Assembly (NCBI GenBank): GCA_963845185.1
Contig: CAWJRG010000009.1
Span: forward strand, 536,743 to 600,742
Source: an uncultured bacterium
GTDB lineage: Bacteria; Oederibacteriota; PGYV01; CAWJRG01
Reading direction: 5' to 3'
Length of the DNA: 64,000 nt
A model generated the notes under the pieces. It searched no databases, was not told the DNA's origin, and saw nothing but the letters and a program-made list of their open reading frames with translations. Shown in pieces: positions 1-52,304 of the stretch (within the stretch, counting starts at the first letter, position 1; every line of letters begins with the position of its first letter). The translations under genes and the position numbers were made by a program.

Positions 1-58
1 TGCGAACGACATAATCCGGCATTATGAAGACAGGACAAAACTTATATAAGGCAAGGCA

Positions 59-1516
59 ATGATAGTGGCCATGAGCAGACGCATAGCAGTGGCGCTCTAT
101 GACGAAATAATAAAAATCAGGCCGCAGTGGCATTCGGAGGAATTAACAAAAGGGGCAATTAAGGTTGTTATGACGTCTTCGTCGTCGGACAAACTTCAAT
201 ATGACCCCGAAGACCCGGAAGGGCTCGTAATACCCGCTTATCACAGAACTGATAAAAAAGACAGGACTTTGCTCGCGGAAAGAATAAAAGACCCTGACGA
301 CCCTTTGAAAATTGTTATAGTAAGGGATATGTGGCTCACGGGTTTTGACGTGCCGTGCCTGCATACAATGTACATAGACAAGCTCATGAAAGGCCATACT
401 TTAATGCAGGCAATAGCAAGGGTAAACAGGGTATTTAAAGACAAGCCCGGCGGGCTTATTGTGGACTACATAGGCATAGGCAATGCCCTGAAAGAGGCCC
501 TGTCGTTTTATTCCGGCGCAGGAGGCAAAGGCAGGCCGGCAGAGACGGAAGAAAAGGCCGTGGGAATGCTGCTGGAAAAAATCGAGGTTGTGAGGCAGAT
601 GTTTCACGGCATTAATATTAAAAAGTTTTTTACGTCCTCGACATCCGAAAAATTATCCATCATATTGCAGGCCGAGGAGCATATTTTAGGGCTTGAAAAG
701 GGCAAGGAGAGATTCATAAGGGAATCCACAATACTATCGAGAGTTTACGCTATAGCAGGAACAAATGAAACCGCGCTGGATTTGAGGGATGAGGTAGCTC
801 TTTACCAGGCAATCAGGGCAAGGTTTCTTAAGTTCGAAGGCACAGATGAGGAGCAAAAAAACAGGAATTATGAATCGGCAATAAAGCAGATTATAAACGA
901 GGCGGTCGAGTCAACCGAAGTAATGGATATATTTGAGGCTGCCGGGATAAAAAGGCCTGAAATATCCCTGCTGTCGGACGAATTTTTGCAGGAAGTAAAA
1001 GACATGCAGCATAAGAACCTGGCTTTTGAGCTTCTAAAAAAAATACTCAATGATGAAATCAATGTCAGGGTAAAATTCAATATCACAGAAAGCAAAAGGC
1101 TGCTTGTAATGCTGGAAAACGCGATTAAAAAATACCAGAATAATTTACTTACAACAGCGGAAATAATAGAGGAAATGATAAAGATAGCCAAAGAAATAAA
1201 AGACATGGACGGGTGCGCTGAAAAACTTAATCTTTCAAAAGAGGAGTTTGCTTTTTACTCTGCGCTCGAGACAAACGACAGCGCGGTCAAAGTACTCGGT
1301 GATGATACGCTCAGGACAATAGCGAGGGAAATAGCGGAAAAGGTGAGGCAGAACGCGACAATAGACTGGACGATGAAAGAAAGCGCAAGGGCGAAGATAA
1401 TGGTTCTCGTAAAGCGCACTTTGAATAAATACGGCTATCCGCCGGATAAACAGCAAAAGGCCGTGGATATAGTACTGAAGCAGGCTGAAGTCATGGCGGA
1501 TTTCTGGACGAAATAA
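59..1516 (+). pseudogene. hsdR: Type I restriction enzyme R subunit (HsdR), C-terminal fragment only (helicase C-domain plus C-terminal helical region)
   Basis: The translation carries SF2 helicase motif VI (QAIARVNR) and HsdR-like flanking sequence ([15 protein letters not shown]). The ORF starts at an internal Met. All three forward frames contain stop codons within nt 1-58, so no N-terminal nuclease/motor half is contiguous in this window. Confidence 0.6.
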
Positions 1517-1534
1517 AATAAACAGGTAAAAGAA

Positions 1535-2233
1535 ATGAAAGAAAATAATCTAAAAAAAATAACAAAGCCATCCTTGTGGGATGCCGGACATGCTGTAATA
1601 ACCGGTATCCTGCCGCCTGTTGCCGCTCAGTTTTTTGGACTTATAGTTGCTCCACCAATTTCAAAACGAAGAGATGAATTTTTAGCAGGATTATATGAAG
1701 ACATAATGAAATTAAAAAAACAAATTAAAAGTTTCGACGAGAAGAAGCTGGAAAATAACGAGCTATTTCAAACAATGGTATTTAATGCCGCGAGGATCGC
1801 CATTTCTACACACCAAAAAGAAAAAATTGAAGCGCTAAAAAATGCCGTTTTAAACTCTATAATTGAGCCTGAAATTAATGAAAGCGTACAACTGCTTTTT
1901 TTAAACTATATTGATCGTTTGTTGCCGATTCATTTAATGTTACTCGATTTTTTTAAAAAACCGTATGACTATTGTCTGAATAAGAAAGTTGATATGCGCT
2001 TGCTTTCTAATGCTTCGATTTGGACTCTCTTAAATAAAGCTATTCCTGGCATTGAAAGATCCTTGCTTATGCAAATAATTAATGATCTTTATAACTATGG
2101 CTTTATTACTGTCTCTGGTTCAAATATTGAAGCTGCGATAGAGCCATTTTTTAGAGCGATTTATAACGAATGCACAACACCATTAGGAAATAGTTTTATT
2201 AAATTTATAACTTCCCCAATAAAAGAAAGTTAA
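1535..2233 (+). CDS. Hypothetical all-alpha protein, possibly associated with the R-M remnant
   Basis: 232-aa ORF starting 18 nt after the hsdR fragment stop. I recognise no motif. Its position suggests co-transcription with the R-M remnant. Confidence 0.45.
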   Translation: MKENNLKKITKPSLWDAGHAVITGILPPVAAQFFGLIVAPPISKRRDEFLAGLYEDIMKLKKQIKSFDEKKLENNELFQTMVFNAARIAISTHQKEKIEALKNAVLNSIIEPEINESVQLLFLNYIDRLLPIHLMLLDFFKKPYDYCLNKKVDMRLLSNASIWTLLNKAIPGIERSLLMQIINDLYNYGFITVSGSNIEAAIEPFFRAIYNECTTPLGNSFIKFITSPIKES

Positions 2234-2326
2234 ATCAATACCTGCAATTTAGTAACGAAGTTTTTCGGCTTAATGGCGCTGCGCAATTCGGGGGATTCAC
2301 TAACTTGTAGGCAAATAATTATTATA

Positions 2327-2454
2327 AGCCCGGGCTTGACCTCCACTATTTTGTAGAGATAACCCTCGGGGCTTTCTAGCTCTTAGACGCCCCTTAGGGG
2401 CGTCTCTACAACGACAAGAATGAGCGGCAGAAAGCCGCCGCTCTACAACAACAA
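2327..2454. repeat. Cluster of GC-rich palindromic hairpins in an AT-rich intergenic region, with 14-nt direct repeats
   Basis: Palindrome agcccgggct at 2327-2336. Hairpin agacgcccc-tta-ggggcgtct at 2385-2405. Hairpin gagcggc-agaaa-gccgctc at 2422-2443, flanked by direct repeats ctctacaacgacaa (2404-2417) and ctctacaacaacaa (2441-2454). Confidence 0.6.
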
Positions 2455-2551
2455 ATAAAGGCTGGAGCTCAAACGAACCACTATTATAAAAACGATTGAT
2501 ATGGCGTTGATGGGATTTGGAAAACCAAAAATAATATGATATAATTCTTGT

Positions 2552-5350
2552 ATGAAAAAAATATCAATCCTTATACTTGCAGCGGTTTTATTCGGCTTCA
2601 CATACCTGCACCCTGCATATTATGACATCCGCCTGAATTCCCTTGGCTTTCTCCCGACAGGCGACAAGAAAGCTTCCATTGACGTTTCCTGCACAACATT
2701 TAACCTGGTCAGGGCATCGGACGGCACAGCCGTCAGCACAGGCACAGTGAGCGGACCTTTTGCGGCAGCGGACAGCGGCGAGACAATATGGATCGCGGAT
2801 TTTTCATCATACACAACGCCGGGCACTTATTTTTTAAGCGTCCCGGGAGTCGGGAACTCCATTGATTTTAATATTGCGGACGGCATTTATAACAACGCTT
2901 TTTACATGGCAATGAAGGCGCTTTATTTGGCCCGCTGCGGCACGGCAGTATCGTATACATATCCTGCGGACAGCAACACGTACGCGCACGGTTTATGCCA
3001 TGACAACGACGCGTACCTTGACAATGTGGGAGGGCCGGCGGGCGCGACAAAAACCTCTAAGGAAGGATGGCACGACGCAGGCGATTATAACAAATACATT
3101 GTCGACGCAGGCGAGACGCTCGGCATGTTGTTCATCGGCTGGGAGCAGTTCCAGAATAAGATAAGCCAGATACCGTTAAACCTGCCGGTGACTGCTGCGG
3201 GATACCCTGAATACCTTGAGGAAATAAAATGGGAGACAGACTGGTTTTTGACCATGCAAACAGCAAACGGTGGGGTGTACGACAAAGTAAGCGAGGTTAC
3301 TTTCTGCGGTTTTATCATGCCTGAGGCAAACACGGTCAACAGGTATTTCTGGGGATACAATAACATCGGCACGGTTGAAACGGCAATATTCTGCGCAACA
3401 ATGGCCATGGCATCAAGGATTTTTGCGCCTTATGACTCAGCGTATTCTACAACTTGCCTTAATGAGGCTAATGCAGCGTACAGCTACCTTATAAATAATC
3501 CGGTCGATACAGTGGCAAACGTTTCCGGCTGCGGCACAGGCAATGCCACAAGCAGCGACCCGGAACAGGCCAGGCTGTGGGCAGCGGCAGAGATGTGGGA
3601 GACCACAGGGAACAGCGCAATGCTGACGGATTTTGAGACAAGGGCAGCCAGCTACGCTCCAAACTACGTTGACGTTGATTTTGACTGGGAAGGCGACAAA
3701 AACCTGGGCATGTACACATACGCGCTGTCAGCCAAAGCAGGCAGGAACCCTGCGCTGCTCGCCGCCATACAAAACAACATCATATACGACGCAAACAGCA
3801 TAACAACAACGACAGCAAGCCATCCTTACGGACGGCCGCTCGGCACGAATTATTACTGGGGCTGCAACGGCAGCAACGCAAGGACCTCGATGCTGCTGCA
3901 GATAGCAAACCAGCTGTCGCCCAGCACAAATTATATCAACGGAGTGATTGACGCAGTTTCGTATTTATACGGAAGGAACACGCACGACAGGTCGTATGTG
4001 ACAGGGGTAGGGATTTACGCGCCCATGAACCCGCACCACAGGCCGTCAGGTTCAGACGGAATAGTAAACCCCTGGCCCGGGTACCTTGTCGGAGGCTCAG
4101 CAGGCAATAACCAGCAGGACCCGGTATTGACGCTTACGCCGACAGGATTGCCGCCGGCTGAATACTGGGCGGACCAGCAAAATTCCTGGTCGTCGAATGA
4201 AGTATGCCTGAACTGGCAGGGCGCCCTTGTGTACGCGCTCAGCGGGTGCATAGGGAACGCAGGCCCCAGTCCTACGCCCACGCCTGCTGCAGTGCCTGCC
4301 TCATGCGGCACAGGCATAACAATAGACGGAAACCTGAACGACGCGGCATGGCAGACAGGCGACTGGGCGTCGTTTAACAGGCTTGTGTCGGGCTTGGACC
4401 CAAACGGCACGAGCGCGAAGTTCAAGGTGAGATGGGACAACAACTACCTTTATGTAGCTGTCGCGGTTTCGACAAGCTCACCGCATAATGACTCGGTAAA
4501 TTATTTCGACGACGACTCGGTCGAGATATACCTTGATATGTTTCACGACAAGTCAGCGGCATATAACCCGGGAGCCTTGAATGATTTTGAGTTTTCCATG
4601 CGGTATAACGACCAGACAATAAGGGGGCAATATACCACGGGCGTGCTGGGGCACACGGCCGCTACGCCTGACGGCTACGCAGTGGAGATGGCGTTTCCGT
4701 GGACAACGCTGAACGCCACGCCTTTGGCCGGAGCAATTTACGGTTTTGATGTGGGAATAAACGTAAATCCAAACGGAGGCACGCCGCGCGACGGGGTGCT
4801 CATGTGGCACGGGGACTCAAACAACTGGCAAGACACAAGCAAATTCGGCGATATGCAGCTGGGCCTGGCATGCGGTTCATCGCCTACTTATACAATATCA
4901 CCTACAGCCACGCAAACAGTGAGTGCCACGTGCACCGTGCCAGGCGCCACGTTAACTGCAACTGCTTTTGAAACAAATACTTTAACGCCGACGCCTGCAA
5001 TCACGGCTACGCCAACCAGTGTGACTTCCGGGAACCTGGAGATTGGCCCGATAAAGCCATATCCAAACCCGTACAATCCTGCGTTAGAGCCTTTAAAAAT
5101 CCGGGTTAACATGACCCCCACTGATATAGACAGCATAAAGCTGGAGATATATACAATGGCATACAGGCTAATAAAGGAAAAGACATTTGAGGGCACGGAA
5201 ATGGAACAAGTCGGGGACGGGGTTATTTTAACCTGTGAAAATAATGAACTCAGCGGACTCAGCTCAGGGACATATTATTATTTTGTAGTTGCTGAAAAAG
5301 ACGGAGCCAAGGCAAGATCCAGGGCAGACACGATTATCATATTAAGATAG
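2552..5350 (+). CDS. Secreted GH9 endoglucanase: CelD-type N-terminal Ig-like domain, GH9 catalytic domain, Pro/Thr linker, CBM9-like module, Thr-rich linker, T9SS/FlgD-Ig-like C-terminal sorting domain
   Basis: Signal peptide present. GH9 signature GWHDAGDYNKY and C-terminal NEVCLNWQGALVYAL. CBM9-like segment (DGNLNDAAWQ...YLYVAV...DSVEIYLD). C-terminal tail PYPNPYNP...IYTMAYRLI...GTYYYFVV...IIILR. Confidence 0.85.
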   Translation: MKKISILILAAVLFGFTYLHPAYYDIRLNSLGFLPTGDKKASIDVSCTTFNLVRASDGTAVSTGTVSGPFAAADSGETIWIADFSSYTTPGTYFLSVPGVGNSIDFNIADGIYNNAFYMAMKALYLARCGTAVSYTYPADSNTYAHGLCHDNDAYLDNVGGPAGATKTSKEGWHDAGDYNKYIVDAGETLGMLFIGWEQFQNKISQIPLNLPVTAAGYPEYLEEIKWETDWFLTMQTANGGVYDKVSEVTFCGFIMPEANTVNRYFWGYNNIGTVETAIFCATMAMASRIFAPYDSAYSTTCLNEANAAYSYLINNPVDTVANVSGCGTGNATSSDPEQARLWAAAEMWETTGNSAMLTDFETRAASYAPNYVDVDFDWEGDKNLGMYTYALSAKAGRNPALLAAIQNNIIYDANSITTTTASHPYGRPLGTNYYWGCNGSNARTSMLLQIANQLSPSTNYINGVIDAVSYLYGRNTHDRSYVTGVGIYAPMNPHHRPSGSDGIVNPWPGYLVGGSAGNNQQDPVLTLTPTGLPPAEYWADQQNSWSSNEVCLNWQGALVYALSGCIGNAGPSPTPTPAAVPASCGTGITIDGNLNDAAWQTGDWASFNRLVSGLDPNGTSAKFKVRWDNNYLYVAVAVSTSSPHNDSVNYFDDDSVEIYLDMFHDKSAAYNPGALNDFEFSMRYNDQTIRGQYTTGVLGHTAATPDGYAVEMAFPWTTLNATPLAGAIYGFDVGINVNPNGGTPRDGVLMWHGDSNNWQDTSKFGDMQLGLACGSSPTYTISPTATQTVSATCTVPGATLTATAFETNTLTPTPAITATPTSVTSGNLEIGPIKPYPNPYNPALEPLKIRVNMTPTDIDSIKLEIYTMAYRLIKEKTFEGTEMEQVGDGVILTCENNELSGLSSGTYYYFVVAEKDGAKARSRADTIIILR

Positions 5351-5436
5351 TTTAAAAAATTTGAAAATCCCGGAAAAGGAGCTTATTATTTTATCGCTCT
5401 TTTTCACTTTCTCATATTGAATTTGTATTTTATATC

Positions 5437-5465
5437 TTGAAACTTTTAATAGTTTGTGGTATACT
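5437..5465 (+). promoter_or_regulatory. Sigma70-type promoter for the GH5 gene (TTGAAA-17-TATACT, TG-extended -10)
   Basis: -35 ttgaaa at 5437-5442, 17-nt spacer, tg-g-tatact at 5457-5465. Sits about 90 nt upstream of the ATG at 5555. Confidence 0.6.
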
Positions 5466-5554
5466 TTAGCCAGATATTAATAAAAACGCTTTCGCTTGGT
5501 GATTTAAACGGTGAATTAGAAAAGTAAAATGCAATCAAAGTCCAGGGGCGTGTT

Positions 5555-7198
5555 ATGGCAACAAAGAAAACTTCAGTACCAATAAATTCAAATATTATTC
5601 CAATTATATTATTCTGTTTATTCTTATCAATTTCATCTTACCTGTCCGCAGCACCGGCCCAGCTCCAGATTTCAGGGACTCATTTTGTCACTGTAAGCAA
5701 CGGCTGCCAGATGAGACTGGTGGGCGTTGATGTGGACGCTTTGGAATGGTCTCCAAACGGTTATGGACCGCCGAGCGGGGCAAACGGCGACATGACGCAA
5801 TCTGTTACCGCTGCAGTAAACACCTGGAAAGCGAATATTGTGAGAATACCGGTAAGCCAGGATTTCTGGTTCGGTTACGGCAATTCGCACGGTACGCCGA
5901 CAAGCGCGGCAGCATACAGGACCCTGGTCGATAATGTAGTGACAGCCGCGTCAAATCTTAATTGCTATGTTGAGCTGGATTTACACTGGTCAGGTACCGG
6001 AACGTGGGGAACTGCAGCGCAGCAGGACAGCATGCCCGACAACAATTCCATAGCATTCTGGCAGGATGCAGCAACAAGGTACGCGAATAACCCGGCTGTA
6101 ATGTTCGACCTGTATAATGAGCCATTTCCAACCGCATGGAGTACATGGAAGAATGGTGGGACAAGTAACGAGGGTTTCACTTGCCCGGGATTCCAAACAC
6201 TGGTTCAGACTGTGCGGGATAAAGGCGCGAAAAATGTAATTATGGTCGGCGGCCTTGGATATTCATGGGACATGACAGGAATTTCAAGCAATGCTTTAAC
6301 CGATAAAAACACAGGCAACACCTTAACCGGTTACGGCATAGCGTATGAAGCCCACATATACGACAATAAAGGTGGAACAACCGAGTCTGATAAAATAAAT
6401 TTATGGAACACAAACGTAACTGTAGCGATAACAGCAGGGTATTGCGTAATAATATCGGAATTTGGGGCAGCCAGCGGCGAGGACAACAGCGGTTGCACGC
6501 CTTTTGAGTCTGACCTCATTTCATGGATAAACGGAAACAACACTGATAGTTACGTATACAGCGCAATGGCATGGGACTTTAATACGCAGGCAGCACCGTG
6601 CCTTATATCGGATTGGAACTTTACAGCTACAACGTGTCATGGAGCACAGGTGAAAAGCTGGCTGGCAGCGGTGACGCCTCCGAACTGCGGCGGCGGCTCC
6701 ACCCCAACAAACACACCCATTTTAACGCGTACTTTCACGCCTACTTTCACACGCACACCAATGCCTACCAGCACCATAACTTTCACGCCCACGCCCATGC
6801 CTGCAATGTCGCTGACAAAAACCGTAAATAAAGCTTCTCTTACGCTTGGAGACACGGTCACATTTACGCTTTCTTACCAGAATACAGGTTCTGTTGCAGC
6901 ACCTAATGTGCCGTTATGGGACACCATACCGGGCTGTGTTTCGTATATAGGCAGCAATCCTGCCGCGACGCAGAATGGGAGCCTGCTCAGCTGGAACCTG
7001 GGAAACATTAATTCGGGGAGCAACGGAAGCGTAACATGGTGGGGCGTGGTCACCTGCTATTCATATAACCCGCTTTTTAACAAAATGTTTTATTTTGCTT
7101 ATTATGACAAAAAGTTTTTTACGCACATATACAATTATTATTATGACTTTGCATGGGCTGACGGCCCGTATAAAAAGAAATTGCAGGAGATGGAGTAA
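5555..7198 (+). CDS. Secreted GH5 cellulase with Pro/Thr linker and a C-terminal DUF11-like conserved-repeat domain
   Basis: Signal peptide present. GH5 acid/base motif FDLYNEP and nucleophile region ISEFG. PT-rich linker (PTNTPILTRTFTPTFTRTPMPT). DUF11-like segment LTKTVNKASLTLGDTVTFTLSYQNTG. The 3' end overlaps the next ORF's upstream extension. Confidence 0.8.
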   Translation: MATKKTSVPINSNIIPIILFCLFLSISSYLSAAPAQLQISGTHFVTVSNGCQMRLVGVDVDALEWSPNGYGPPSGANGDMTQSVTAAVNTWKANIVRIPVSQDFWFGYGNSHGTPTSAAAYRTLVDNVVTAASNLNCYVELDLHWSGTGTWGTAAQQDSMPDNNSIAFWQDAATRYANNPAVMFDLYNEPFPTAWSTWKNGGTSNEGFTCPGFQTLVQTVRDKGAKNVIMVGGLGYSWDMTGISSNALTDKNTGNTLTGYGIAYEAHIYDNKGGTTESDKINLWNTNVTVAITAGYCVIISEFGAASGEDNSGCTPFESDLISWINGNNTDSYVYSAMAWDFNTQAAPCLISDWNFTATTCHGAQVKSWLAAVTPPNCGGGSTPTNTPILTRTFTPTFTRTPMPTSTITFTPTPMPAMSLTKTVNKASLTLGDTVTFTLSYQNTGSVAAPNVPLWDTIPGCVSYIGSNPAATQNGSLLSWNLGNINSGSNGSVTWWGVVTCYSYNPLFNKMFYFAYYDKKFFTHIYNYYYDFAWADGPYKKKLQEME

Positions 7199-7199
7199 A

Positions 7200-10100
7200 A
7201 TGCCAAAGGCTAGGGCAAAAGAAAAACGAAGCAGAGAAGGGGCGTGTAAAAATAATCTGATAATATTTTTTATTTTTTACGCAATTATACTAATGCCTTC
7301 CATGGCTTTTGCTACGACAACTGTCCAGAACATGGCAGTCTCACCGGGCACTGTATCCGCAGGCCAGAATGTAACGATAACATTTTCATTTATGAGCACA
7401 AATACAGGCTGTAAAATATCATATTTCGCGGCTTTATCAAACCAGTGCGCCCTGCAAAACGCGGGTACAGCGGGCCAGTCCATACTTGTTTCAGAATCAG
7501 GCATGGATGTATTAAACACAAGCGTTAACGGCGGCAGGACCAGCCTGTGCAACGGGGACAATACCTATCACGCTACAACAGAAACCACGTGCGGCATGGA
7601 AACAGGCGGGGGGCCTATTTACATGACCGTGCCGTCAAGCTGGGCAAACGGCACATATTACGCGATAGTTGCGGTCAGGGACTGCAATATATACATGAAC
7701 CCGGCATGCTGCTCAAATATGGACAACCAGTATTGCGTGTCATTTAATGTGGGTGTGGCGGGTTCGCCGACAAATACGCCCTTGCCGACGAGGACAACGA
7801 CGCCCACGCCCGTGCCTGTCGGGGTTATAGTCAATGTGGCGCAGATAGGTTTTGGCAATTCCAGCAGCGTTTCTTTTAATGTTTTATCGCCAACGCAGAC
7901 AAGCACGCAGCAGTCAAACCCGACTTTTACACGGACCTCAACAATGACAAATACAAAGACAAGCACACCATCTTTTACATTTACATGCACAAATACATTC
8001 ACTCCAACAAACACATTTACCGTAACAGGCACAAATACGCCGCAGAACACGGTTACATTAACCGCTACAGGCACAAGCACGGCATTGCCTACAGCTACAA
8101 ATACGGCAACGCCTACACTTTCGGCGACAAGGACAAATACTGTGACCCCGACATATACGGCTACGGCGACAAATTCGCAATTGCCTACAGCTACGCGCAC
8201 AAATACACCGACATATACAGTTACCTTAACGTGGACAAGCACGTTGCAGAACACGGTTACATTAACCGCTACAGGCACAAGCACGCCATTGCCTACAGCT
8301 ACAAATACGGCAACACCTACACTGTCAGCGACAAGGACAAATACTGTTACGCCTACATTTACCAGTACAACTACCGTGACTTATACAAATACCCTGACAT
8401 GGACAAACACGCCACAAAATACAGCAACATTAACAGCTACAGGAACAAATACGTTATTGCCGACAGGAACAAACACACAATCTCCTTCACCTTCGGCTAC
8501 GGTGAGCATGACAGCTACGAGGACGAGCACAGCGACAAATACGCCGACATATACAGCCACCCTGACATGGACAAACACACCACAGAACACAATAACTTTG
8601 ACAGCTACAGGAACAAATACACCATCAGCTACAGCTACATTTACAGCAACAAAGACAAGCACAGCAACAAATACACCGACATATACAGTTACCTTAACGT
8701 GGACAAACACACCACAGAACACGGTGACTTTAACCGGGACAGAAACGAATACACCCTCAGCTACAGCTACATTTACAGCGACAAGAACAAATACATTGAC
8801 ATATACGGCTACGATGACGTGGACCAACACACTGCAGAATACAATAACTTTAACAGTTACAGGAACGGATACATCCTCAGTTACGCCTACGTTTACGGTG
8901 ACAAAAACAAACACTGCATCTAATACACCGACATATACATGTACAATGACAGGCACAAGTACGGTGACGTTGACATTTACACTGACAAATACGCCTTCAT
9001 TAACAGTAACAGCAACTTTCACAAGAACAGTTACACCGACATTTACCAGTTCACCTGTGGTATCACCTACACCCACATTTACGAATATAATATTCACATG
9101 GACAATAACGCAAACATTTACCATATCCCCGACAATTACAATGACAAACACGTTATTGCCCACAGGAACAAACACAGCAACGCCTTCATTAACGGCGACA
9201 AGGTCAAATACGGCAACACCAACATTCACTTCGACACCCACGGCAACATATACAGTCACCCTGACGTGGACAAACACACCGCAGAACACGGCAACTTTAA
9301 CTGAGACAAGCACAAATACCCAGCTGCCAACAGGGACAAATACAGCAACGCCTTCATTAACGGCAACAAGGTCGAGCACGGCAACACCGACTTTAACTGT
9401 AACATCTACGGCGACGTATTCAGTCACCCTTACATTGACAAATACGCCGCAGAACACAGCGACTTTTACAGCAACAGAAACAAACACATCTTCTGCGTCG
9501 CCTACATTTACAATGACAAGGACAAATACTGCCACAAATACCCAGACAAACACACCTTCATTTACAACAACACTGACTTTTACAAGAACAGTTACATTGA
9601 CATTTACCAGTTCACCCGCGGTATCACCCACACCCACATTTACGAACATAATATTCACATGGACAATAACGCAAACATTTACAATATCCCCGACAATTAC
9701 CATGACAAACACGCCGATCCCGACAGAAACAAATACAGAGACGCCTACTTTTACAGCAACACGGACAAACACAGCAACGATGACTTTAACTACGACATTG
9801 ACGCAGACATATACAATTACTTTAACGTGGACAAGCACAGCGCTAGATACTGCTACTTCAACGGAAACAGGCACAAATACAATATTGCCAACATGGACAA
9901 GCACAGCGACATTAACGTTCACAGATACAAGGACATACACTGCGACAATTACGCCGACATATTCAGCAACATTGACCTGGACAAACACGCCGCAGAACAC
10001 AACAACCTTAACTGTTACTGCTACAAATAGCTGCGCCTGTACAGGGACTCCGACTTATACAGCAACTATTTTTACGCCTACAATTACTCCTACATATACA

Positions 10101-11312
10101 GTGTCATTGACAATTACCCTGACAAACACGCCTTCGCCTACAGCAACATATACAGCTACACCTACGGGAACAAAGACAATAACACCAACATGGAGCCCGA
10201 CGAATACACCGACACTGATAGATACACCTACATTCACCGGTACAGCAACTGCCACAATTACACTTACGTTTACAGGAACATCGACATTTACAGCAACAAT
10301 TATATACACACTTACCAATACTGAAATTGTATCGGAAACACCGACTTATACAGCCACAATTTACACGCCGACAATTTCGCCGACATCTACAATAACACCA
10401 ACAATAACATTAACGGAATCGCCTTCATTAACAGATACGGCAACGTACACTACAACAGGAACAAAGACATGGACAAATACACCATTACCTACGCTTACAA
10501 ATACGCCACAAAACACCGCAACAAGTACAGTCACGCCTACTGTAGGAGCAAATCTTGTAGCGGCTATTACTGTATCGCCGGGGAGTGCAATGATCGGCCA
10601 GGATATAACTGTAATAATGCAAGTAGTAAATACAGGGACAAATGGCGTGGATAACTTACAGCCTTCAACGCTGGCTCAAACAGGCGGTGGAACAGCTGTC
10701 CTTGTAAGCGGGCCCAGCCCTGCAAGTACTGCAATAGCCTCGGGGACAGCAGGATCATTTACGTGGATATATACAGTGACTTCTGTGGCAGGGAACATAA
10801 CATTCAGCGGCAGTGCAAGCGGCACAGACGCGGTAAACGGCATAATAGTTTCAACTTCATCAGTGTCGAGTAATCCTTTAATATGCGTTACAGCCACAGC
10901 AACATTAGCAAATTCGATTACAGTTACCATAACGGCGACAAATACAATAACGCCGAGTATTACGGCGACCAATCCAGTGGCGACAGCCAGCTTTACACCG
11001 ACAAACCAGGTTACTGTTTTGACTGTCACTGCTACTATTGTTATCGCAGAACCGCCACGGATATATCCAAACCCGGTGAAAGACAGGTTTAGATATGTAT
11101 TTACCCTGACAGAAGACGCGGATATAGAAATAACAATATATACAGCGGCATACAGGCTGATAGCAAAATTTGACCAGAGACAGAGCGCAGGGTTAAACAC
11201 TATTGTAATAGACACACAAGGTATGGCAAACGGAACATATTTTATCGTATATAAGCAAAAAGGGCAGACAACAAATACCAGAAGAATTGATAAATTTATT
11301 GTTTTAAAATAA
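7200..11312 (+). CDS. Giant secreted cell-surface protein: Cys-containing N-terminal domain, about 900 aa of Thr-x-Thr repeats, DUF11/CARDB-like domain, T9SS/FlgD-Ig-like C-terminal sorting domain
   Basis: ATG at 7200 is preceded by ggagatggag and followed by a signal peptide (LIIFFIFYAIILMPSMAFA). The long ORF drawn from 7095 lies in the same frame but overlaps the GH5 gene. Repeats such as TPTYTVTLTWTNTPQNTVTLTATGTNT recur throughout. The C-terminus reads YPNPVKDRF...IYTAAYRLI...GTYFIVY...FIVLK. Confidence 0.8.
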   Translation: MPKARAKEKRSREGACKNNLIIFFIFYAIILMPSMAFATTTVQNMAVSPGTVSAGQNVTITFSFMSTNTGCKISYFAALSNQCALQNAGTAGQSILVSESGMDVLNTSVNGGRTSLCNGDNTYHATTETTCGMETGGGPIYMTVPSSWANGTYYAIVAVRDCNIYMNPACCSNMDNQYCVSFNVGVAGSPTNTPLPTRTTTPTPVPVGVIVNVAQIGFGNSSSVSFNVLSPTQTSTQQSNPTFTRTSTMTNTKTSTPSFTFTCTNTFTPTNTFTVTGTNTPQNTVTLTATGTSTALPTATNTATPTLSATRTNTVTPTYTATATNSQLPTATRTNTPTYTVTLTWTSTLQNTVTLTATGTSTPLPTATNTATPTLSATRTNTVTPTFTSTTTVTYTNTLTWTNTPQNTATLTATGTNTLLPTGTNTQSPSPSATVSMTATRTSTATNTPTYTATLTWTNTPQNTITLTATGTNTPSATATFTATKTSTATNTPTYTVTLTWTNTPQNTVTLTGTETNTPSATATFTATRTNTLTYTATMTWTNTLQNTITLTVTGTDTSSVTPTFTVTKTNTASNTPTYTCTMTGTSTVTLTFTLTNTPSLTVTATFTRTVTPTFTSSPVVSPTPTFTNIIFTWTITQTFTISPTITMTNTLLPTGTNTATPSLTATRSNTATPTFTSTPTATYTVTLTWTNTPQNTATLTETSTNTQLPTGTNTATPSLTATRSSTATPTLTVTSTATYSVTLTLTNTPQNTATFTATETNTSSASPTFTMTRTNTATNTQTNTPSFTTTLTFTRTVTLTFTSSPAVSPTPTFTNIIFTWTITQTFTISPTITMTNTPIPTETNTETPTFTATRTNTATMTLTTTLTQTYTITLTWTSTALDTATSTETGTNTILPTWTSTATLTFTDTRTYTATITPTYSATLTWTNTPQNTTTLTVTATNSCACTGTPTYTATIFTPTITPTYTVSLTITLTNTPSPTATYTATPTGTKTITPTWSPTNTPTLIDTPTFTGTATATITLTFTGTSTFTATIIYTLTNTEIVSETPTYTATIYTPTISPTSTITPTITLTESPSLTDTATYTTTGTKTWTNTPLPTLTNTPQNTATSTVTPTVGANLVAAITVSPGSAMIGQDITVIMQVVNTGTNGVDNLQPSTLAQTGGGTAVLVSGPSPASTAIASGTAGSFTWIYTVTSVAGNITFSGSASGTDAVNGIIVSTSSVSSNPLICVTATATLANSITVTITATNTITPSITATNPVATASFTPTNQVTVLTVTATIVIAEPPRIYPNPVKDRFRYVFTLTEDADIEITIYTAAYRLIAKFDQRQSAGLNTIVIDTQGMANGTYFIVYKQKGQTTNTRRIDKFIVLK
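7900..10545 (+). repeat. In-frame ACN-codon tandem repeat array (period about 117-120 bp) with nested long repeats
   Basis: Diverged tandem units encode TLTWTNTPQNT-x-TLTATGTNT. Near-identical 123-bp copies lie at 9031-9153 and 9591-9713. A second repeated unit lies at 9176-9230 and 9341-9400. Confidence 0.85.
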
Positions 11313-11326
11313 CACACTAAAAATAA

Positions 11327-11354
11327 TTGACAAAATCGCAGAATAGTGTAAAAT
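11327..11354 (+). promoter_or_regulatory. Sigma70-type promoter of the gap-pgk-tpiA operon (TTGACA-16-TAAAAT)
   Basis: ttgaca at 11327-11332, 16-nt spacer, taaaat at 11349-11354. A 9-bp GC hairpin (gggaacggc/gccgttccc, 11379-11406) lies in the 5' UTR. Confidence 0.6.
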
Positions 11355-11418
11355 TTCACATAACCAAAATCCAAAGCAGGGAACGGCGACAAAAAGTGCC
11401 GTTCCCGCAATTATTTAA

Positions 11419-12462
<1,044 letters not shown>

Positions 12463-12529
12463 TTAAAAAAGTGTTTTAGGTTTTTAATCATAGAGATATT
12501 TATTAAGATAATTAACGGAGGTAATTTTT

Positions 12530-13756
12530 ATGGCTAAGTTAACCATTGAAGATTTGGGAAACAGCGGAGAACTGACAGGCAAAAGAGTATTGATGCGCGT
12601 TGATTTCAACGTGCCTCTTGACGAGAAACGCAACATAACTTCTGACAAGAGGATAACAGCGTCTTTGCCGTCCATAAAATATGTAATCGAAAAAAAGGGC
12701 AGGCTTATCCTGATGTCCCATCTCGGCAGGCCAAAAGGCAAGAAAGCCCCTGAATTCTCGCTTGACGTGGTGGCTAAAAAATTGTCCGAACTGCTCGGAA
12801 AAGAAGTAAAGTTTGCGCCTGACTGCATAGGGCCTGAAGTGAAAAAAATGGCGGATTCTTTAAAGGACGGCGACGTGATGCTGCTTGAAAACCTCAGGTT
12901 TTACAAGGAAGAGGAAGGCAATGACCCGGAGTTCGCGAAAAAACTCGCGGAACTCGGAGAAGTCTATATAAACGACGCATTCGGCACGGCACACAGGGCG
13001 CATGCGTCCACCGAGGGCGTGTGCAAGTACATGAAAAAATGCGCGGCAGGCTTTTTGATGCAGAAAGAACTGCAGTTCCTCGGCCAGATACTGACAAACC
13101 CGGCAAGGCCTTTTCTGGCAATACTCGGCGGGGCAAAAGTAAGCGATAAAATAATGGTTATAGAAAACCTTCTTAACAAGGTAAACTCCCTGATAATAGG
13201 CGGAGGAATGGCGTACACGTTTCTGAAAGCCCAGTCAAAAGAAATAGGCAATTCACTTTGCGAAAACGACAAGATTGACACGGCAAAGGATATAATTAAA
13301 AAGGCGCTGGACAAGGATGTTGCTATTTACCTTCCTATAGATCATATAGTGGCTAAAAGGCCTGCCGGCATACCGGATTTTATAGAATCCCTGAAAAAAG
13401 CCGAATACAAAGAGGTAATGAGGGATACCATAGACGAAGGATGGGAAGGTGTTGACATAGGGCCAATGACAATAGAAAAATTCAAAAATGTCATAAAGAA
13501 ATCTAAAACAATATTCTGGAACGGGCCTATGGGAGTATTTGAAGTCGAGCAGTTTGCAAAAGGCACACTTGAAATAGGAAAGGCAATGGCTGAGTCAGGC
13601 GCGGTTACCGTGGTAGGCGGCGGAGATTCGGCGTCTGCCTTAAAAAAGCTTAAACTTACGGATAAAATGACTCATGTATCTACTGGAGGAGGCGCTTCGA
13701 TGGAATTTATGGAAGGAAAAGAGCTTCCAGGTGTGGCAGCGCTGACTAATAAATAA
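12530..13756 (+). CDS. pgk: Phosphoglycerate kinase
   Basis: RVDFNVPLD near the N-terminus and full-length PGK-like sequence. RBS aacggagg. Confidence 0.96.
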   Translation: MAKLTIEDLGNSGELTGKRVLMRVDFNVPLDEKRNITSDKRITASLPSIKYVIEKKGRLILMSHLGRPKGKKAPEFSLDVVAKKLSELLGKEVKFAPDCIGPEVKKMADSLKDGDVMLLENLRFYKEEEGNDPEFAKKLAELGEVYINDAFGTAHRAHASTEGVCKYMKKCAAGFLMQKELQFLGQILTNPARPFLAILGGAKVSDKIMVIENLLNKVNSLIIGGGMAYTFLKAQSKEIGNSLCENDKIDTAKDIIKKALDKDVAIYLPIDHIVAKRPAGIPDFIESLKKAEYKEVMRDTIDEGWEGVDIGPMTIEKFKNVIKKSKTIFWNGPMGVFEVEQFAKGTLEIGKAMAESGAVTVVGGGDSASALKKLKLTDKMTHVSTGGGASMEFMEGKELPGVAALTNK

Positions 13757-30631: not shown

Positions 30632-31222
30632 ATGGATATTGAAAAAGAAAATGAATTAATTGAACAATCAAAATCAGATCCGAAAGCATTTGAAAAGTTG
30701 TTTGATAATTATTATCATGCCGTTTTTAGATATGCAGCACACAGAACGGGAAATATAGAAGTCTCAAGCGATATTGCGGCTGAAACATTTTTTAAAGCAT
30801 TTAATAAAATTTATACTTATAATCCTAAAATAGCCCCGTTTTCGGCATGGCTTTTTAAAATAGCCAATAATGAAACAAATTATTATTTCAGGAAACACAA
30901 ATATACACCCTTTTCTTATAATGCCGCAGTTGAAGATGGTGGATTCAGGGAACCGGCATCGCCAGTCGATATTGAAAAGGAATTTATGGATGCGCAGGAA
31001 GAAATGGAAAAAAACAAGGATTTTTTACAGGTAAAGGAAGCTATATGCAAATTACCCGCAAGATATCAGGAGGTAATAGTTCTTAAGTTTCTGGAGGATA
31101 AAAAAATTTCCGAAATCAGTTTAATCCTGAATAAAAAAGAAGGAACAATAAAATCACTTATATCCAGGGGTTTGGCAAGATTGCGAAAATATTTTTCCCG
31201 AAAAAGACGCAACCATTTATAA
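30632..31222 (+). CDS. RNA polymerase ECF-type sigma factor (sigma-70 regions 2 and 4)
   Basis: Region 2 sequence YHAVFRYAAHRTGNIEVSSDIAAETFFKAF. Region 4 helix-turn-helix ISEISLILNKKEGTIKSLISRGLARLRK. Confidence 0.85.
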   Translation: MDIEKENELIEQSKSDPKAFEKLFDNYYHAVFRYAAHRTGNIEVSSDIAAETFFKAFNKIYTYNPKIAPFSAWLFKIANNETNYYFRKHKYTPFSYNAAVEDGGFREPASPVDIEKEFMDAQEEMEKNKDFLQVKEAICKLPARYQEVIVLKFLEDKKISEISLILNKKEGTIKSLISRGLARLRKYFSRKRRNHL

Positions 31223-31271
31223 TCTGAAGCATATATTAAGTAACAGCAAGAATAACGAAAGGCGGCTTTAA

Positions 31272-32099
31272 ATGGAAGAAAAAGATATAATTAAAAAGCT
31301 GGAAAAAGCAAGGCTTTCAATGCATGGGTTTAAAGCCCACGGCGCCAGAGTTAAAGCAGTGCTTTTTAGCAGGAAAATTAAAGAGGAAAGAAAATATATA
31401 CCCGAATATTTTAAAATTTTAACAGCCATGGCTGGCATGTTTGTTTTGGCAATTGCGTCTTATTATGTAGTTGATAACATGGATAAAGGTAATAAATTCA
31501 ATAAAAACGGTGGAATCTGGTCAACCTACAGCGATGTTCAGGAAGGTGGAGATTCAAAGGTATGGCCTCCGCCGGCTTCAGCAACTGGAAATGATTTTGT
31601 GATGTCAAAGCCCGGTTACGGAGGAGAGGGTTACGCAGTAAGGATTACAGGCATGACAGGCTCCAAACTCGGCTTAAATTATAATTATTTTGGCGTGGTA
31701 AACAGATTTAGCAGTGATTCTTCCTGCCCCAAATGTAAAGGTGCAAATATTAAAAAATATTCCGGCATAATGTTCAGGATTAAGGGAAAAATACTGTCAG
31801 GCAATCTTTTTTTTATACTGCCTTATGAAGGCAATGAGTGCGTAGCTGAAAGGCTTACATGCAAGAGTTTGACCGGCTATGCGGATTACGAAAAGGACAT
31901 TACAAATGAAGTCAAGCAAAACTGGAACTTTATTGTTATTGATTTCAGAAGAGATTTAAGGCAACCTTATTGGACGCCAAACAATGCAGTTGTGCCGATT
32001 GAGAAAGTACTTGAAAATGTTCACCTTTTCAAGTGGCAGTTTAAAAACGGGGACGGCAATTTAGTGGATATTTGGATTGATAATGTCCGACTTTTCTAA
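31272..32099 (+). CDS. Putative anti-sigma factor/sensor: short cytoplasmic segment, one TM helix, extracytoplasmic CBM-like beta-sandwich domain
   Basis: TM helix ILTAMAGMFVLAIASYYVV. The C-terminal domain ends in NLVDIWIDNVRLF, echoing the xIYVDNVKA ending of the CBM-like N-domain in the downstream hydrolase. Confidence 0.55.
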   Translation: MEEKDIIKKLEKARLSMHGFKAHGARVKAVLFSRKIKEERKYIPEYFKILTAMAGMFVLAIASYYVVDNMDKGNKFNKNGGIWSTYSDVQEGGDSKVWPPPASATGNDFVMSKPGYGGEGYAVRITGMTGSKLGLNYNYFGVVNRFSSDSSCPKCKGANIKKYSGIMFRIKGKILSGNLFFILPYEGNECVAERLTCKSLTGYADYEKDITNEVKQNWNFIVIDFRRDLRQPYWTPNNAVVPIEKVLENVHLFKWQFKNGDGNLVDIWIDNVRLF

Positions 32100-32268: not shown

Positions 32269-34590
32269 ATGAAAAAAAGCAAGAAAACATTATTTTTATC
32301 GGCAATTGTTTTTTCTTTATTGTTTATTTTATGTTTTAGTAAGATAGCGTTTGCTGCGGACACCACGCAAGATGCAAAAGCAGTTGAAGCAATGAAAGCA
32401 AGCCATAATATTGTACTGTGGAATTTCGAAGATGGCACAACAGATGGGTGGCATGGTGCAGGCGCAAAATGGGGAAAAGCTTCCTCGGTCAACAACAAAT
32501 CTGATTTTGTAAGCGAAGGAAAATACTCTTTGGAAATTAATTGTAAGGGTTCGACGGACTGGAACCAGGATGCTGCGGTCAATGATGGGCCGTTTCCGAA
32601 AGAGTTTCAAAAACTTGTCGAGATCACAATGGATGTATTCGTGCCAGCAGAGACATTAAAAGGAATGGAATATGCCGAGCTTTATTTCGTGATTTCTGGC
32701 GCTGCAAATACATGGTATCAGCTCAAACAACAGTTAAATCAGGGCTGGAACAATCTGGTATTTAAGGTTGACACGGCAAATGTAAGAGGAGAGATATGGC
32801 ATACGTATATTGTAGTAAATTCAACCGAGCCTTTTAACGGGCCAATCTATGTTGACAATGTAAAAGCAAGGGTACAGGGACCATTGGGCGAAATTAAAGG
32901 TAAAGCCATTGATAAAGACAGTAAACAGCCATTAAAAGGAGCATGTTTTGTAATTGGTGATACTTTGGTTAAAACCGACGACGGTGGAAATTTTCAGGCA
33001 AATGTATACGAGGATGAATATAGTAAATTGGCAATTATTATGCCGGGATATATGGATAAGACAATGGATAAAGTTGTTGTTTGGGGTGGAAAAACCACTG
33101 ATTTAGGAGAAGTTTTAGTCACTAAGAAAAGCGAGCCTAAAGAAGAGCAGGTAAATGTTACAGTAGATGCGTCAAAGGTTATAAGGGAATTTGATCCGCA
33201 CAAGGTTTATGGCAACAACGCAGCAGTGTGGGATAAAAAAGACGGATTTGTTGACAATATTGCACTTGAAAAAATAAGAAAATCAGGTGCCACACTTATT
33301 AGGTTCCCTGGCGGTGATTACGGCAACCTTTATAACTGGAAAACAGGTGAGGTTTATAAATGGGATGGTTCTGTTTCATGGACGCCGGAAATGAATTATT
33401 ATATGTTTATAGCCTTCATGAAAAGGCTTGACCCAATAAATGCCGAAGTACTTCCAACCTTAAATGTAATGACACCTCCAAACAAGACATTAGTGGAAAG
33501 AGTTAAATTTCAGATAGAATGGCTTAAGGACATGAGGGAAAAAGGTCTTAAATTCCGGTACGTTGAAATCGGAAACGAGCCTGATAACAAGCCTGCGGTA
33601 AAAGCACCATCCGATATGAAAAAATTGGCGAAGAAAAAAGACGGTACGGAATTCTGGACAAGTATTGATGATTACTGCGCTGTTTTTAACGAAGCAGCAA
33701 GCATTATAAAAAAAGAGATTCCTGATGTAAAAATTTTGGGTCCAGTTCCAATGCAACCAATGAATCAACTTAGATTGGAAGGAGAGCCATGGAAAGCCGA
33801 AGGCGACCCAAAAGCGCCTTTCTGGCTTGAAAGGTTTTTAAAACTTTCGGGTAAATATGTAGATGTCTTGGTGACACATGAATATCCATTATGGGCAAAT
33901 AACAGCACTGTGGCACTTTTGAAAAGGCCGCAGGAAACATGGCCGGTATATATGCCGAAAATAAAAGCATGGATGAAAAAGTACGTGCCTGAAAAAGCTG
34001 ACACTATGGAAGTTGCCTTAACCGAATGGAACTCGGGGCAAGAAAATCCGACAACGGCACAGCTTATAAACGGTTTGTTTGCGGCAGACTATCTTGCATC
34101 TTTTATTAAGTCGGGTGGAGATATAGCTTGTATCTGGGACATGTATACACAGAAAGCTGGCCAGGGTGGAGGGCACGGAGTTCTTGATGAAGAGTTTGAT
34201 CCTAGCAATAAATATGCGGAAAGGTCATCTTACTGGGCGCTATATATGATGTATAACATGTTGGGTAAAAAAATGGTTAAAGCAGATTCAAATAACCAGG
34301 ATCTTTCCGTTTACGCTACAATGCTTGACGACGGAAATTTGGCGATAATGGCTATAAACAAAACAAGCTTGTCGAAATGCAAGGCAACAATAGATATTTC
34401 CGGCTTTAACGTGGGAAATGGCACTGCGGATGCTTGGCAATTTTCAGATAAGGAATATGTATGGAGCACAATGCTTTTTAGGGCAATTATTAACTCGGGC
34501 CCATCTCAGTTCCAGATTAACAATGTGAAAAACACGTTTACTGAAGATTTCCCGCCTTATTCAATCACGATATTGCATATAAAAAAGTAA
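32269..34590 (+). CDS. Secreted clan GH-A glycoside hydrolase (GH51/GH39/GH79-like) with N-terminal CBM-like domain and CarbopepD_reg-like domain
   Basis: Signal peptide present. Catalytic-domain motifs LIRFPGGDYGNLYNW, YVEIGNEPD (acid/base) and LTEWNSG (nucleophile-like DEWN). Confidence 0.7.
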   Translation: MKKSKKTLFLSAIVFSLLFILCFSKIAFAADTTQDAKAVEAMKASHNIVLWNFEDGTTDGWHGAGAKWGKASSVNNKSDFVSEGKYSLEINCKGSTDWNQDAAVNDGPFPKEFQKLVEITMDVFVPAETLKGMEYAELYFVISGAANTWYQLKQQLNQGWNNLVFKVDTANVRGEIWHTYIVVNSTEPFNGPIYVDNVKARVQGPLGEIKGKAIDKDSKQPLKGACFVIGDTLVKTDDGGNFQANVYEDEYSKLAIIMPGYMDKTMDKVVVWGGKTTDLGEVLVTKKSEPKEEQVNVTVDASKVIREFDPHKVYGNNAAVWDKKDGFVDNIALEKIRKSGATLIRFPGGDYGNLYNWKTGEVYKWDGSVSWTPEMNYYMFIAFMKRLDPINAEVLPTLNVMTPPNKTLVERVKFQIEWLKDMREKGLKFRYVEIGNEPDNKPAVKAPSDMKKLAKKKDGTEFWTSIDDYCAVFNEAASIIKKEIPDVKILGPVPMQPMNQLRLEGEPWKAEGDPKAPFWLERFLKLSGKYVDVLVTHEYPLWANNSTVALLKRPQETWPVYMPKIKAWMKKYVPEKADTMEVALTEWNSGQENPTTAQLINGLFAADYLASFIKSGGDIACIWDMYTQKAGQGGGHGVLDEEFDPSNKYAERSSYWALYMMYNMLGKKMVKADSNNQDLSVYATMLDDGNLAIMAINKTSLSKCKATIDISGFNVGNGTADAWQFSDKEYVWSTMLFRAIINSGPSQFQINNVKNTFTEDFPPYSITILHIKK

Positions 34591-41362: not shown

Positions 41363-41396
41363 AAGCAAGGCATCAAAAATCAAAAGGAAACATAAA

Positions 41397-51173: not shown

Positions 51174-52304
51174 ATGAAAAAACTTTTCATATCAGTTTGT
51201 TTTACTTGGTTTTTATTTATGTTATTCACTATGGGGTGCAGCAAGAAAAGTCCAACTCAAGCAGAACCTACTAACACGCCATATGTAATCACAGCAACAT
51301 TCACAAACACACCAAATATGACAGCAACCACACAGACTGCAGCAACGCAAACAGTTATTGCCTTAAAAACAGCTGGCCCTTCAGCACAAGCTACAGCAAC
51401 AGCCCAGGTACAACAAACAGCAACCATGACTGCGATGTTTGTAACACAATGGGGTAGCGTTGGAAGCAACAACGGACAACTTTATCATCCTTTTGGAGTA
51501 GCAGTAGACAACAGTGGTGGAAGTAGTAACGGAGATGTATATGTTGCAGATAATGGTAATAACAGAATTCAAAAATTCAGCAATACAGGTGCATTTATAG
51601 CCTCATGGGGAATTGTTGGTGGGCAGGCGGGAAGTGGTGATGGGCAGCTTAATTGGCCTCAGGGAGTAGCTGTAGATAGTGGTGGAAATGTGTATGTTTC
51701 AGAAGTAGGTAATGATCGAATACAAGAATTTAATAGCGCAGGAACATATATAACTAAATGGGGTAGTAGCGGAAGCGGCAACGGGCAGTTTAATTATCCC
51801 GTTGGAGTTGCGATAGACAATATTAGTGGAGATGTATATATTGCCGATACTGGGAATAGCAGGATCCAAAAATTCAACAGTACAGGAACATATATAACAC
51901 AATGGGGTGGTTCTGGAACAGGCAATGGACAATTTAAGGGTTTCGGAGTGGCAGTTGACAGCAACGAAGATGTTTATGTCGCAGATACAAGTAATAACAG
52001 AATTCAAAAATTTGATAGTACGGGAACATATATAACACAATGGGGTGGTTCTGGAACTGGTAACGGGCAGTTTAACCAACCCACAGGGGTAGCAATAGAC
52101 AGCAACGGAAACGTGTATGTTGCAGACTCTGTTAATAGCAGAATACAAGAATTTAACAGTACAGGTACATATATAACACAATGGGGTAGTAGTGGAACCG
52201 GTAATGGGCAATTTGTTAGTCCTTATGGAGTAGCAGTAGACAGTAGTGGAGATGTTTATGTTGCTGAATGGACTAATAACAAAATTGATAAATTTCATCC
52301 ATAA
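51174..52304 (+). CDS. NHL-repeat beta-propeller lipoprotein with Thr/Ala/Gln-rich N-terminal linker
   Basis: Lipobox FTMGCS. Six NHL repeats of the form GQFNxPxGVAVDSxGxVYVADxxNxRIQKF. Adjacent repeats are nearly identical at the nucleotide level. Confidence 0.85.
   Translation: MKKLFISVCFTWFLFMLFTMGCSKKSPTQAEPTNTPYVITATFTNTPNMTATTQTAATQTVIALKTAGPSAQATATAQVQQTATMTAMFVTQWGSVGSNNGQLYHPFGVAVDNSGGSSNGDVYVADNGNNRIQKFSNTGAFIASWGIVGGQAGSGDGQLNWPQGVAVDSGGNVYVSEVGNDRIQEFNSAGTYITKWGSSGSGNGQFNYPVGVAIDNISGDVYIADTGNSRIQKFNSTGTYITQWGGSGTGNGQFKGFGVAVDSNEDVYVADTSNNRIQKFDSTGTYITQWGGSGTGNGQFNQPTGVAIDSNGNVYVADSVNSRIQEFNSTGTYITQWGSSGTGNGQFVSPYGVAVDSSGDVYVAEWTNNKIDKFHP

Follow-up and report, generated by a model that had tools for sequence, protein, structure and literature searches.

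In a 64,000-nucleotide stretch of DNA from an uncultured bacterium (assembly GCA_963845185.1, contig CAWJRG010000009.1, forward-strand positions 536,743 to 600,742; hereafter the window), we analyzed a gene at 7200-11312 that probably encodes a stalked cell-surface protein, exported by the Sec route, ending in a tail of the type IX secretion system (T9SS) type and carrying a rare immunoglobulin (Ig)-like head on a long threonine spacer. An earlier annotation made from the letters and their open reading frames (ORFs) alone, referred to here as the sequence-only reading, had proposed a secreted surface protein with a head, a huge threonine spacer and a T9SS-type tail, and the translation, the Pfam and TIGRFAM matches and an AlphaFold2 (AF2) model agree with it. 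In the arrangement that we favor, a Sec signal peptide would carry the protein over the inner membrane, and a type A C-terminal sorting domain (CTD) would steer it to a T9SS-like sorting pathway, which would export it and leave its C-terminal end attached to the outer membrane. Outward from the membrane, a small Ig-like module would come first; an array of about 900 residues, with threonine at roughly every second position, would follow, and an Ig-like head of 150 residues would occupy the free tip. The array would serve as a long spacer, probably O-glycosylated and protease-resistant, that could reach about 0.2-0.3 μm if fully extended; its composition and length would matter rather than its sequence, and its length would shift by in-frame tandem and segmental duplication. 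The head would be the functional end and, given the coupling of its gene with those for GH5 and GH9 cellulases, would most likely bind a plant polysaccharide or a partner surface protein. The parts of the gene are as follows.

7192-7195, plus strand: Shine-Dalgarno-like GGAG, 4 nt ahead of the ATG (direct sequence reading)
7200-11312, plus strand: complete coding sequence, 1370 residues, 32.7% Thr (ORF table and translation)
7200-7313, plus strand: probable Sec signal peptide, residues 1-38 (translation read by eye)
7314-7790, plus strand: head domain, a Cys-containing Ig-like beta-sandwich of a rare, lineage-restricted family (AF2 model)
7872-10562, plus strand: (Thr-x)n array, residues 225-1121, with 42% Thr, 8% Pro and 317 overlapping TxT (translation, motif counts and autocorrelation)
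10536-10895, plus strand: C-terminal globular module, residues 1113-1232, probably Ig-like (homologues P0003-P0005; no Pfam family)
10872-11039, plus strand: second short Thr-rich linker, residues 1225-1280 (composition analysis)
11061-11309, plus strand: T9SS type A CTD, extending to the last residue (Pfam and TIGRFAM)

A single frame stays open from the ATG at 7200 to the stop codon at 11310-11312, and 448 of its 1370 residues are threonine, just as the sequence-only reading had described a hyper-threonine ORF of roughly this length. ATG 7200 is the most plausible start; one nucleotide separates it from the stop codon (7196-7198) of the upstream GH5 gene, and the frame it opens includes both the head domain that has homologues and the tail matched by Pfam and TIGRFAM. 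The N-terminus has the layout of a probable Sec signal peptide when read by eye (basic n-region, hydrophobic LIIFFIFYAIILMP, then AFA followed by TTT), from which we infer the cleavage site. Two other long frames, one of 539 Val-rich residues on the minus strand (8381-10000) and one of 312 His/Lys/Tyr/Asp-rich residues in another plus-strand frame (7985-8923), were discarded as shadow frames arising from the ACN repeat; both could be annotated by mistake in automatic gene calling.

The head domain and its family

An AF2 model of the head built from 15 sequences is a beta-sandwich with a pLDDT of 84.6, in keeping with the globular Cys-containing N-terminal module that had been proposed; this model was used in place of an earlier one built from 3 sequences (pLDDT 57). 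A PDB sequence-profile search with the head returned chance-level matches only. Matches to AA9, one of the two families (AA9 and AA10) of lytic polysaccharide monooxygenases (LPMOs) considered for the head, were likewise at chance level (E 0.07-0.26), and an LPMO identity was rejected because the protein has no N-terminal His: its predicted mature start is TTTVQN, and it contains a single His in all.

The head family is very rare: 28 clusters/proteins emerged when 1.84 billion representatives were searched with a profile. The genome and metagenome scans placed relatives on JGI metagenome contigs and in metagenome-assembled genomes (MAGs), some of them labelled candidate division FCPU426 and others being "binchicken" MAGs, the identifiable members belonging to Goldbacteria/FCPU426-type MAGs. 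Their usual architecture runs from the head through a (Thr-x)n array and FlgD-type Ig domains to a CTD. Array lengths in the family are 209, 268, 347, 474, 895 and 897 residues (897 being the protein of the window), with 42-47% Thr and, in the relatives, 10-17% aromatic residues, and no sequence similarity was left when the relatives' arrays were compared with composition filtered out. The L003 head is among the closest found (60-66% identical), and under the same filter nothing of the L003 protein aligns with the window protein beyond the head. We also observed that the L003 array, at about 10526-13210 in an independent MAG, measures 895 residues against 897 here (7872-10562); the near-equal lengths could reflect either selection on length or coincidence.

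Where a CTD is present the head is N-terminal (window, L003, L017/P0008, P0013, P0015, P0017 and L020), and in lipobox-type proteins (L004, L005, L006, L008 and P0001) it is C-terminal, after a Thr-rich linker that follows the Cys. Internal or duplicated heads occur as exceptions in P0006, P0007/L016 and L023. The head thus usually sits at the end opposite the predicted anchor, and its position opposite either anchor type fits the prediction of a head-on-stalk design. We read the array as a probable spacer because its composition is conserved, its length and sequence are free, and the head is distal to either kind of anchor. A short hydrophobic segment between head and array (7770-7919), of the type GVQN.G...G..N.V..I and here PVGVIVNVAQIGFGNSSSVSFNV, is conserved family-wide, with equivalents in L002, L003, P0013, P0015 and P0019.

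Composition and repeats of the threonine array

Threonine makes up 38-48% of each 50-residue block from about residue 250 to about residue 1100. Within the 897-residue array Ser accounts for 7%, runs of (T-x)n with n of at least 5 hold 601 residues, and the x positions are chiefly A, N, L, P, F, V, S, G, Y, I, R and W. Threonine is encoded by ACA at 277 codons, and the share of ACA among Thr codons is 64% in the array vs. 43% in the other genes of the window; this ACA-heavy coding accounts for a strong negative GC skew at 8-10 kb. The repeats detected in the array are the following.

8522-8950, plus strand: tandem array, period 132 nt (44 residues), 3.3 copies, 75% matches (TRF)
9157-9466, plus strand: tandem array, period 168 nt (56 residues), 1.8 copies, 82% matches (TRF)
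8013-8347, plus strand: young in-frame duplication, 8013-8143 vs. 8217-8347, offset 204, 90% identical
8199-8736, plus strand: young in-frame duplication, 8199-8268 vs. 8667-8736, offset 468, 90% identical, containing a 40-nt exact match
8991-9713, plus strand: segmental duplication, 8991-9152 vs. 9552-9713, offset 561, 90% identical

Autocorrelation of the non-Thr residues is highest at 56 residues (0.18 vs. 0.065 for shuffled arrays; sd 0.014), with the next peaks at 187, 44 and 68 residues. Together with the TRF results this gives several nested periods, as expected from the hierarchical repeats that the sequence-only reading had noticed. Its more specific numbers need revision: the dominant periods are 56 and 44 residues, a period of 39-40 residues being weak (barely over background at 40), and the long TLTWTNTPQNT-type unit, put at more than 12 copies, was counted 8-10 times. 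A nearly identical 123-bp duplication had also been reported as a single recent event about 560 bp apart. It is present and young, but 114 of its 123 bases match (93%), its offset is 561, its core extends over 9015-9152 vs. 9576-9713 (93% identical), and it is one of three such duplications, the 8013/8217 and 8199/8667 pairs having been missed. All three offsets (204, 468 and 561) are divisible by 3, and the youngest pair of copies differs by 6 synonymous and 2 non-synonymous changes. The three young in-frame duplications and the 209-897-residue range of the relatives' arrays uphold the earlier suggestion of ongoing expansion and contraction, and support an array that changes by repeat gain and loss. 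A comparison of copy number between strains or MAGs had been proposed as well; lengths do vary among the relatives, but no allelic copy was found in the closest genomes.

We consider it very improbable that the ORF, in its array or as a whole, results from misassembly or is a pseudogene in decay. Assemblies do break at repeats, two related contigs (L002 and L018) stop within such Thr arrays, and an exact-sequence look-up in a public collection found neither the stalk protein nor the neighboring GAPDH. The 4.1-kb frame, however, is unbroken and has functional domains at both ends, the repeat copies differ at many sites with synonymous changes in excess (6:2) in the youngest pair, and an independent MAG holds a similar protein with its 895-residue array. 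Moreover, the longest exact repeat inside the array is 40 nt, and the risk of assembly collapse is therefore low for this copy; the hazard raised by the sequence-only reading was overstated here and holds for L002 and L018. In this lineage Thr arrays do break up metagenome assemblies, and MAG inventories of surface proteins will therefore be incomplete.

The C-terminal module and sorting tail

The module that follows the array had been described as DUF11/CARDB-like. Residues 1101-1284 had no Pfam match even at E=10, and hhalign of the module against the DUF11 domains of this gene family gave a 12% probability over 30 columns, and we therefore abandoned this assignment; the real DUF11 domain sits in the upstream GH5 protein. 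A weak match to a filamin Ig-repeat (E=0.0025), in a PDB sequence-profile search that was otherwise at chance level, suggests an Ig-like fold for the module.

The T9SS-type tail, in turn, passed both relevant cut-offs as had been anticipated: PF18962 (Por_Secre_tail) matched residues 1288-1359 at 34.1-36.8 bits (cut-off 27), and TIGR04183 matched at 37 bits (cut-off 23) when the tail was scanned alone. With the whole protein, the Pfam scan reported the tail only, and the NCBIfam scan reported no match, TIGR04183 included; since the tail-alone scan recovered TIGR04183, the composition of the protein appears to mask the tail in NCBIfam. PorV/PorQ-family genes (NF033709, 151 and 137 bits; cut-off 90) adjoin related cargo genes in two related contigs (L016 6193-7095 and L023 151-1059), in each case directly upstream of a CTD-bearing protein of the head family. 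These neighbors support T9SS-like sorting in a lineage outside the Bacteroidota, as judged from gene order in L016 and L023 and not from this genome.

The C-terminal domain of the GH9 cellulase encoded nearby (5039-5347) clearly resembles the tail of the stalk protein (YPNP ... IYT.AYRLI); it scores 14.7 bits, under the TIGR04183 cut-off, and is weakly like the C-terminal end of the PorU model. P0003 joins the C-terminal module of the stalk protein with a GH9-type tail.

Linkage to cellulase genes

Upstream of the stalk gene lie two cellulase genes, and a terminator-like hairpin follows it.

2552-5350, plus strand: GH9 cellulase with CelD_N, CBM9, a TxT linker and a related C-terminal sorting domain (Pfam/TIGRFAM)
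5555-7198, plus strand: GH5 cellulase with a TxT linker, a DUF11 domain and an aromatic C-terminal tail (Pfam)
11379-11406, plus strand: terminator-like hairpin of 10 pairs, 7 of them GC, between the stop codon and gap (consensus scan alone)

The three genes form one cluster on the same strand, and both enzymes contain short TxT linkers; to judge from this layout, the stalk gene is co-transcribed or coupled with the GH5 and GH9 genes. Pfam and NCBIfam scans recognized no anchor in the GH5 protein itself. L002, L003, L017 and L018 likewise have, as the immediate upstream neighbor of the head-stalk gene, a gene whose product ends in an aromatic, charged tail; the two genes overlap or lie no more than about 25 nt apart. 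Pfam confirmed that a DUF11 domain precedes this tail in the window, L002 and L003 (L017 and L018 were not Pfam-scanned), and L005, P0012 and P0019 each join head and DUF11 in a single polypeptide. The tail might be an unrecognized sorting or docking signal. It comprises 30-50 residues and is loosely conserved (YPF/NPLF ... YFA ... acidic/basic); the sites are 6797-7198 in the window, about 9450-9849 in L002, about 9480-9823 in L003, 7422-9875 in L017 and 8836-9885 in L018.

An enzyme-tethering scaffold, in which the head binds the aromatic tail that follows DUF11 in the co-transcribed upstream protein (here GH5) in the manner of cohesin and dockerin and so holds the enzyme at the tip of the stalk, would explain the upstream genes at five loci that end in DUF11 (window, L002 and L003) or in a similar tail (L017 and L018), the head-DUF11 fusions, and a GH5 protein without a recognized anchor. 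We nevertheless find this quite unlikely: the co-occurrence may merely reflect two surface modules that are common in the phylum, and the tail is poorly conserved.

The closest genome found (L009) has a phosphoglycerate kinase (PGK) 97% identical in protein and about 80% in DNA. It is syntenic with the window from the gap-pgk-tpi-secG block onward; synteny ends at 11318, and the GH9-GH5-stalk cluster is absent from this site in L009. Two further relatives also differ upstream of gap, and the relatives carry unrelated genes there. The cellulase-stalk cluster is therefore a variable region, and 1-11318 of the window as a whole may be an island or variable region. GC content is 0.47-0.49 at 2-8 kb vs. 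0.34-0.40 downstream, and of a type I restriction R subunit apparently just the C-terminal part is encoded, at 59-1516.

The PGK of the window shares 76-82% identity with proteins that bear the name Candidatus Goldbacteria or Goldiibacteriota. Goldbacteria, the phylum to which 16S sequences of FCPU426 have been assigned, includes a cellulose degrader supported by experiment (PMC7031533). We take the host to be a cellulolytic bacterium of the Goldbacteria/FCPU426 group.

Possible O-glycosylation of the array

Dense O-glycosylation of the array, as proposed by the sequence-only reading, is plausible by analogy with the linkers of cellulases and with serine-rich repeat adhesins (PMC7661464), and more so because the window encodes GT-C genes. 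Three large membrane proteins are encoded consecutively at 36994-43484.

36994-39369: YfhO-like GT-C membrane protein
39359-41362: TMEM260-like (PF11028) GT-C protein with C-terminal TPR repeats (Pfam)
41397-43484: TMEM260-like (PF11028) GT-C protein (Pfam)

Human TMEM260, which has distant homologues in bacteria, is a protein O-mannosyltransferase (PMC10214176). The two TMEM260-like proteins are candidate enzymes for modifying Thr-rich linkers, and PMT/PMT_2-PA14 genes are found in relatives, close to the same housekeeping block. A composite design can be drawn from these elements and the cellulase cluster: a non-cellulosomal display in which a T9SS-anchored stalk of about 0.2 μm would be O-mannosylated in the periplasm by a TMEM260-like GT-C enzyme and would capture the tail of the DUF11 enzyme (GH5) with its head. 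We hold this whole combination to be improbable; if true, the relatives that a human disease gene has in bacteria would have a first class of substrates.

Spacer or folded fiber

Several observations weigh against a glycosylated stalk with a binding head. Expression, glycosylation, surface location and binding of the protein are all predictions, and the fold of the head is generic and points to no ligand. The sequon of Bacteroidota O-glycosylation, D(S/T)(A/I/L/V/M/T), is nearly absent; with only 2 matches in 897 residues, the array was rejected as a member of that substrate class. The TMEM260-like genes lie 28 kb from the stalk gene, and their substrate is only conjectural. No T9SS component was recognized in the 64-kb window, the whole genome not having been searched for SprA, PorU or GldKLMN. 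Finally, about 45% of the x positions in the array are hydrophobic or aromatic, which is not usual in a disordered region of the mucin-like kind and would fit amphipathic beta-strands as well.

This last point leads to what we rank as the main rival, a folded beta-rich fiber (a beta-solenoid or a stacked beta-meander) with a Thr face and a mixed hydrophobic core, in which the array itself would be the functional surface and might bind crystalline cellulose, mineral or ice. The strict alternation over 601 residues would put Thr on one face of any beta-strand, the hydrophobic x residues (A, L, F, V, I, Y or W) and the 10-17% of aromatic residues in the relatives could fill a core, and Pro/Gly-containing breaks each 8-20 residues look turn-like. 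TxT ladders are, in addition, the ice-binding faces of insect antifreeze beta-helices. Against a fiber, the array shows no strong short coil period (0.10 at a lag of 12 vs. a null of 0.065), its real periods being 44-56 residues. Its sequence is unconserved among relatives and its length varies more than 4-fold, as is typical of a spacer and not of a folded core, and the same style of motif makes short inter-domain linkers in the neighboring enzymes. We therefore regard the fiber as rather unlikely. Like the TxT ice-binding beta-solenoids of insects and bacteria the array is rich in TxT (317 overlapping), but unlike them it has no regular coil of 12-16 residues, no Cys or Ca2+-binding scaffold and no conserved sequence. 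Membership in that class was rejected on the autocorrelation at lags of 12-16, which is 0.06-0.10 against a null of 0.065 ± 0.014.

For the stalk with a spacer, which we prefer, the TxT style is shared more widely: besides the array, it is seen in the GH9 and GH5 enzymes as short linkers, and in lipoproteins encoded at 51174 and 52393. These probable lipoproteins, an NHL-repeat propeller (51174-52304) and an FGE-sulfatase-like protein (52393-53190), have a TxT-style Thr-rich linker straight after the lipobox Cys; the same spacer style would therefore serve with lipid anchors too.

Relation to known systems

The protein resembles type A cargo of the T9SS, known from Bacteroidota and allied phyla, in its probable N-terminal signal peptide (here read by eye), in a CTD of about 80 residues that scores above both cut-offs, and in the PorV/PorQ-family genes beside related cargo genes in related contigs. 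Unlike such cargo, it comes from a Goldbacteria/FCPU426 host rather than from Bacteroidota, its passenger is dominated by a (Thr-x)n array of 900 residues, and it is known here from sequence alone.

Pro/Thr-rich O-glycosylated linkers occur in bacterial cellulases (e.g., Cellulomonas fimi), and Thr/Pro-rich secreted proteins of Actinobacteria undergo PMT-dependent O-mannosylation. The stalk protein shares with these a Thr-rich inter-domain stretch, a cellulolytic cluster with TxT linkers adjacent, and the presence of GT-C mannosyltransferase-like genes. Its array differs from cellulase linkers in being 10-40 times longer, in having only 8% Pro and many hydrophobic x residues, and in its hierarchical repeats, and it joins non-catalytic domains.

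A glycosylated repeat stalk that projects a binding region is the established design of the serine-rich repeat protein (SRRP) adhesins (PMC7661464). Like Fap1, GspB, PsrP and Srr1/2, the stalk protein combines a probable signal peptide and a non-repeat domain close to its N-terminus with a long stalk of hydroxy amino acids and a predicted C-terminal anchor (PMC7661464), and repeat length varies among relatives. The repeat here, however, is of Thr (42% Thr, 7% Ser) and not Ser, the tail is of the T9SS type and not LPxTG, and, in contrast to the Gram-positive SRRP producers, the host is a diderm in which any glycosylation would be periplasmic, not cytoplasmic. No SecA2/Y2 or GtfA/B was recognized among the ORFs of the window (by eye, and by Pfam for ten of them). 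With a Thr-based array, no LPxTG and no accessory Sec or GtfAB recognized in the window, membership in the SRRP family was rejected. We found in the literature no description of Thr dipeptide-repeat stalk proteins with T9SS-type tails or of the head family, and nothing relevant on threonine-rich T9SS proteins or on a T9SS in Goldbacteria. The stalk protein would work like known stalked adhesins while standing outside the SRRP family, and it is not described in this form.

Long hydroxy-amino-acid stalks that carry a binding domain outward are well known in Gram-positive pathogens; no Thr-based, T9SS-tailed form is known from an uncultured cellulolytic candidate phylum. If our reading is true, it shows how these bacteria get past their own surface layers to insoluble plant polymer, and the arrays, at 209-897 residues in relatives, would be a natural and evolvable molecular spacer. 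For the TMEM260-like and PMT-like glycosyltransferases of bacteria, which have no assigned targets, they would also offer a candidate substrate.

Other features of the window

An Rfam scan of 6500-12000 and PADLOC on both ends of the stalk protein gave no match. Elsewhere in the window, 32269-34590 encodes a 773-residue protein that has a signal peptide and matches no Pfam family; it lies downstream of an ECF-type sigma factor (recognized by eye) and an adjacent gene at 30632-32099.

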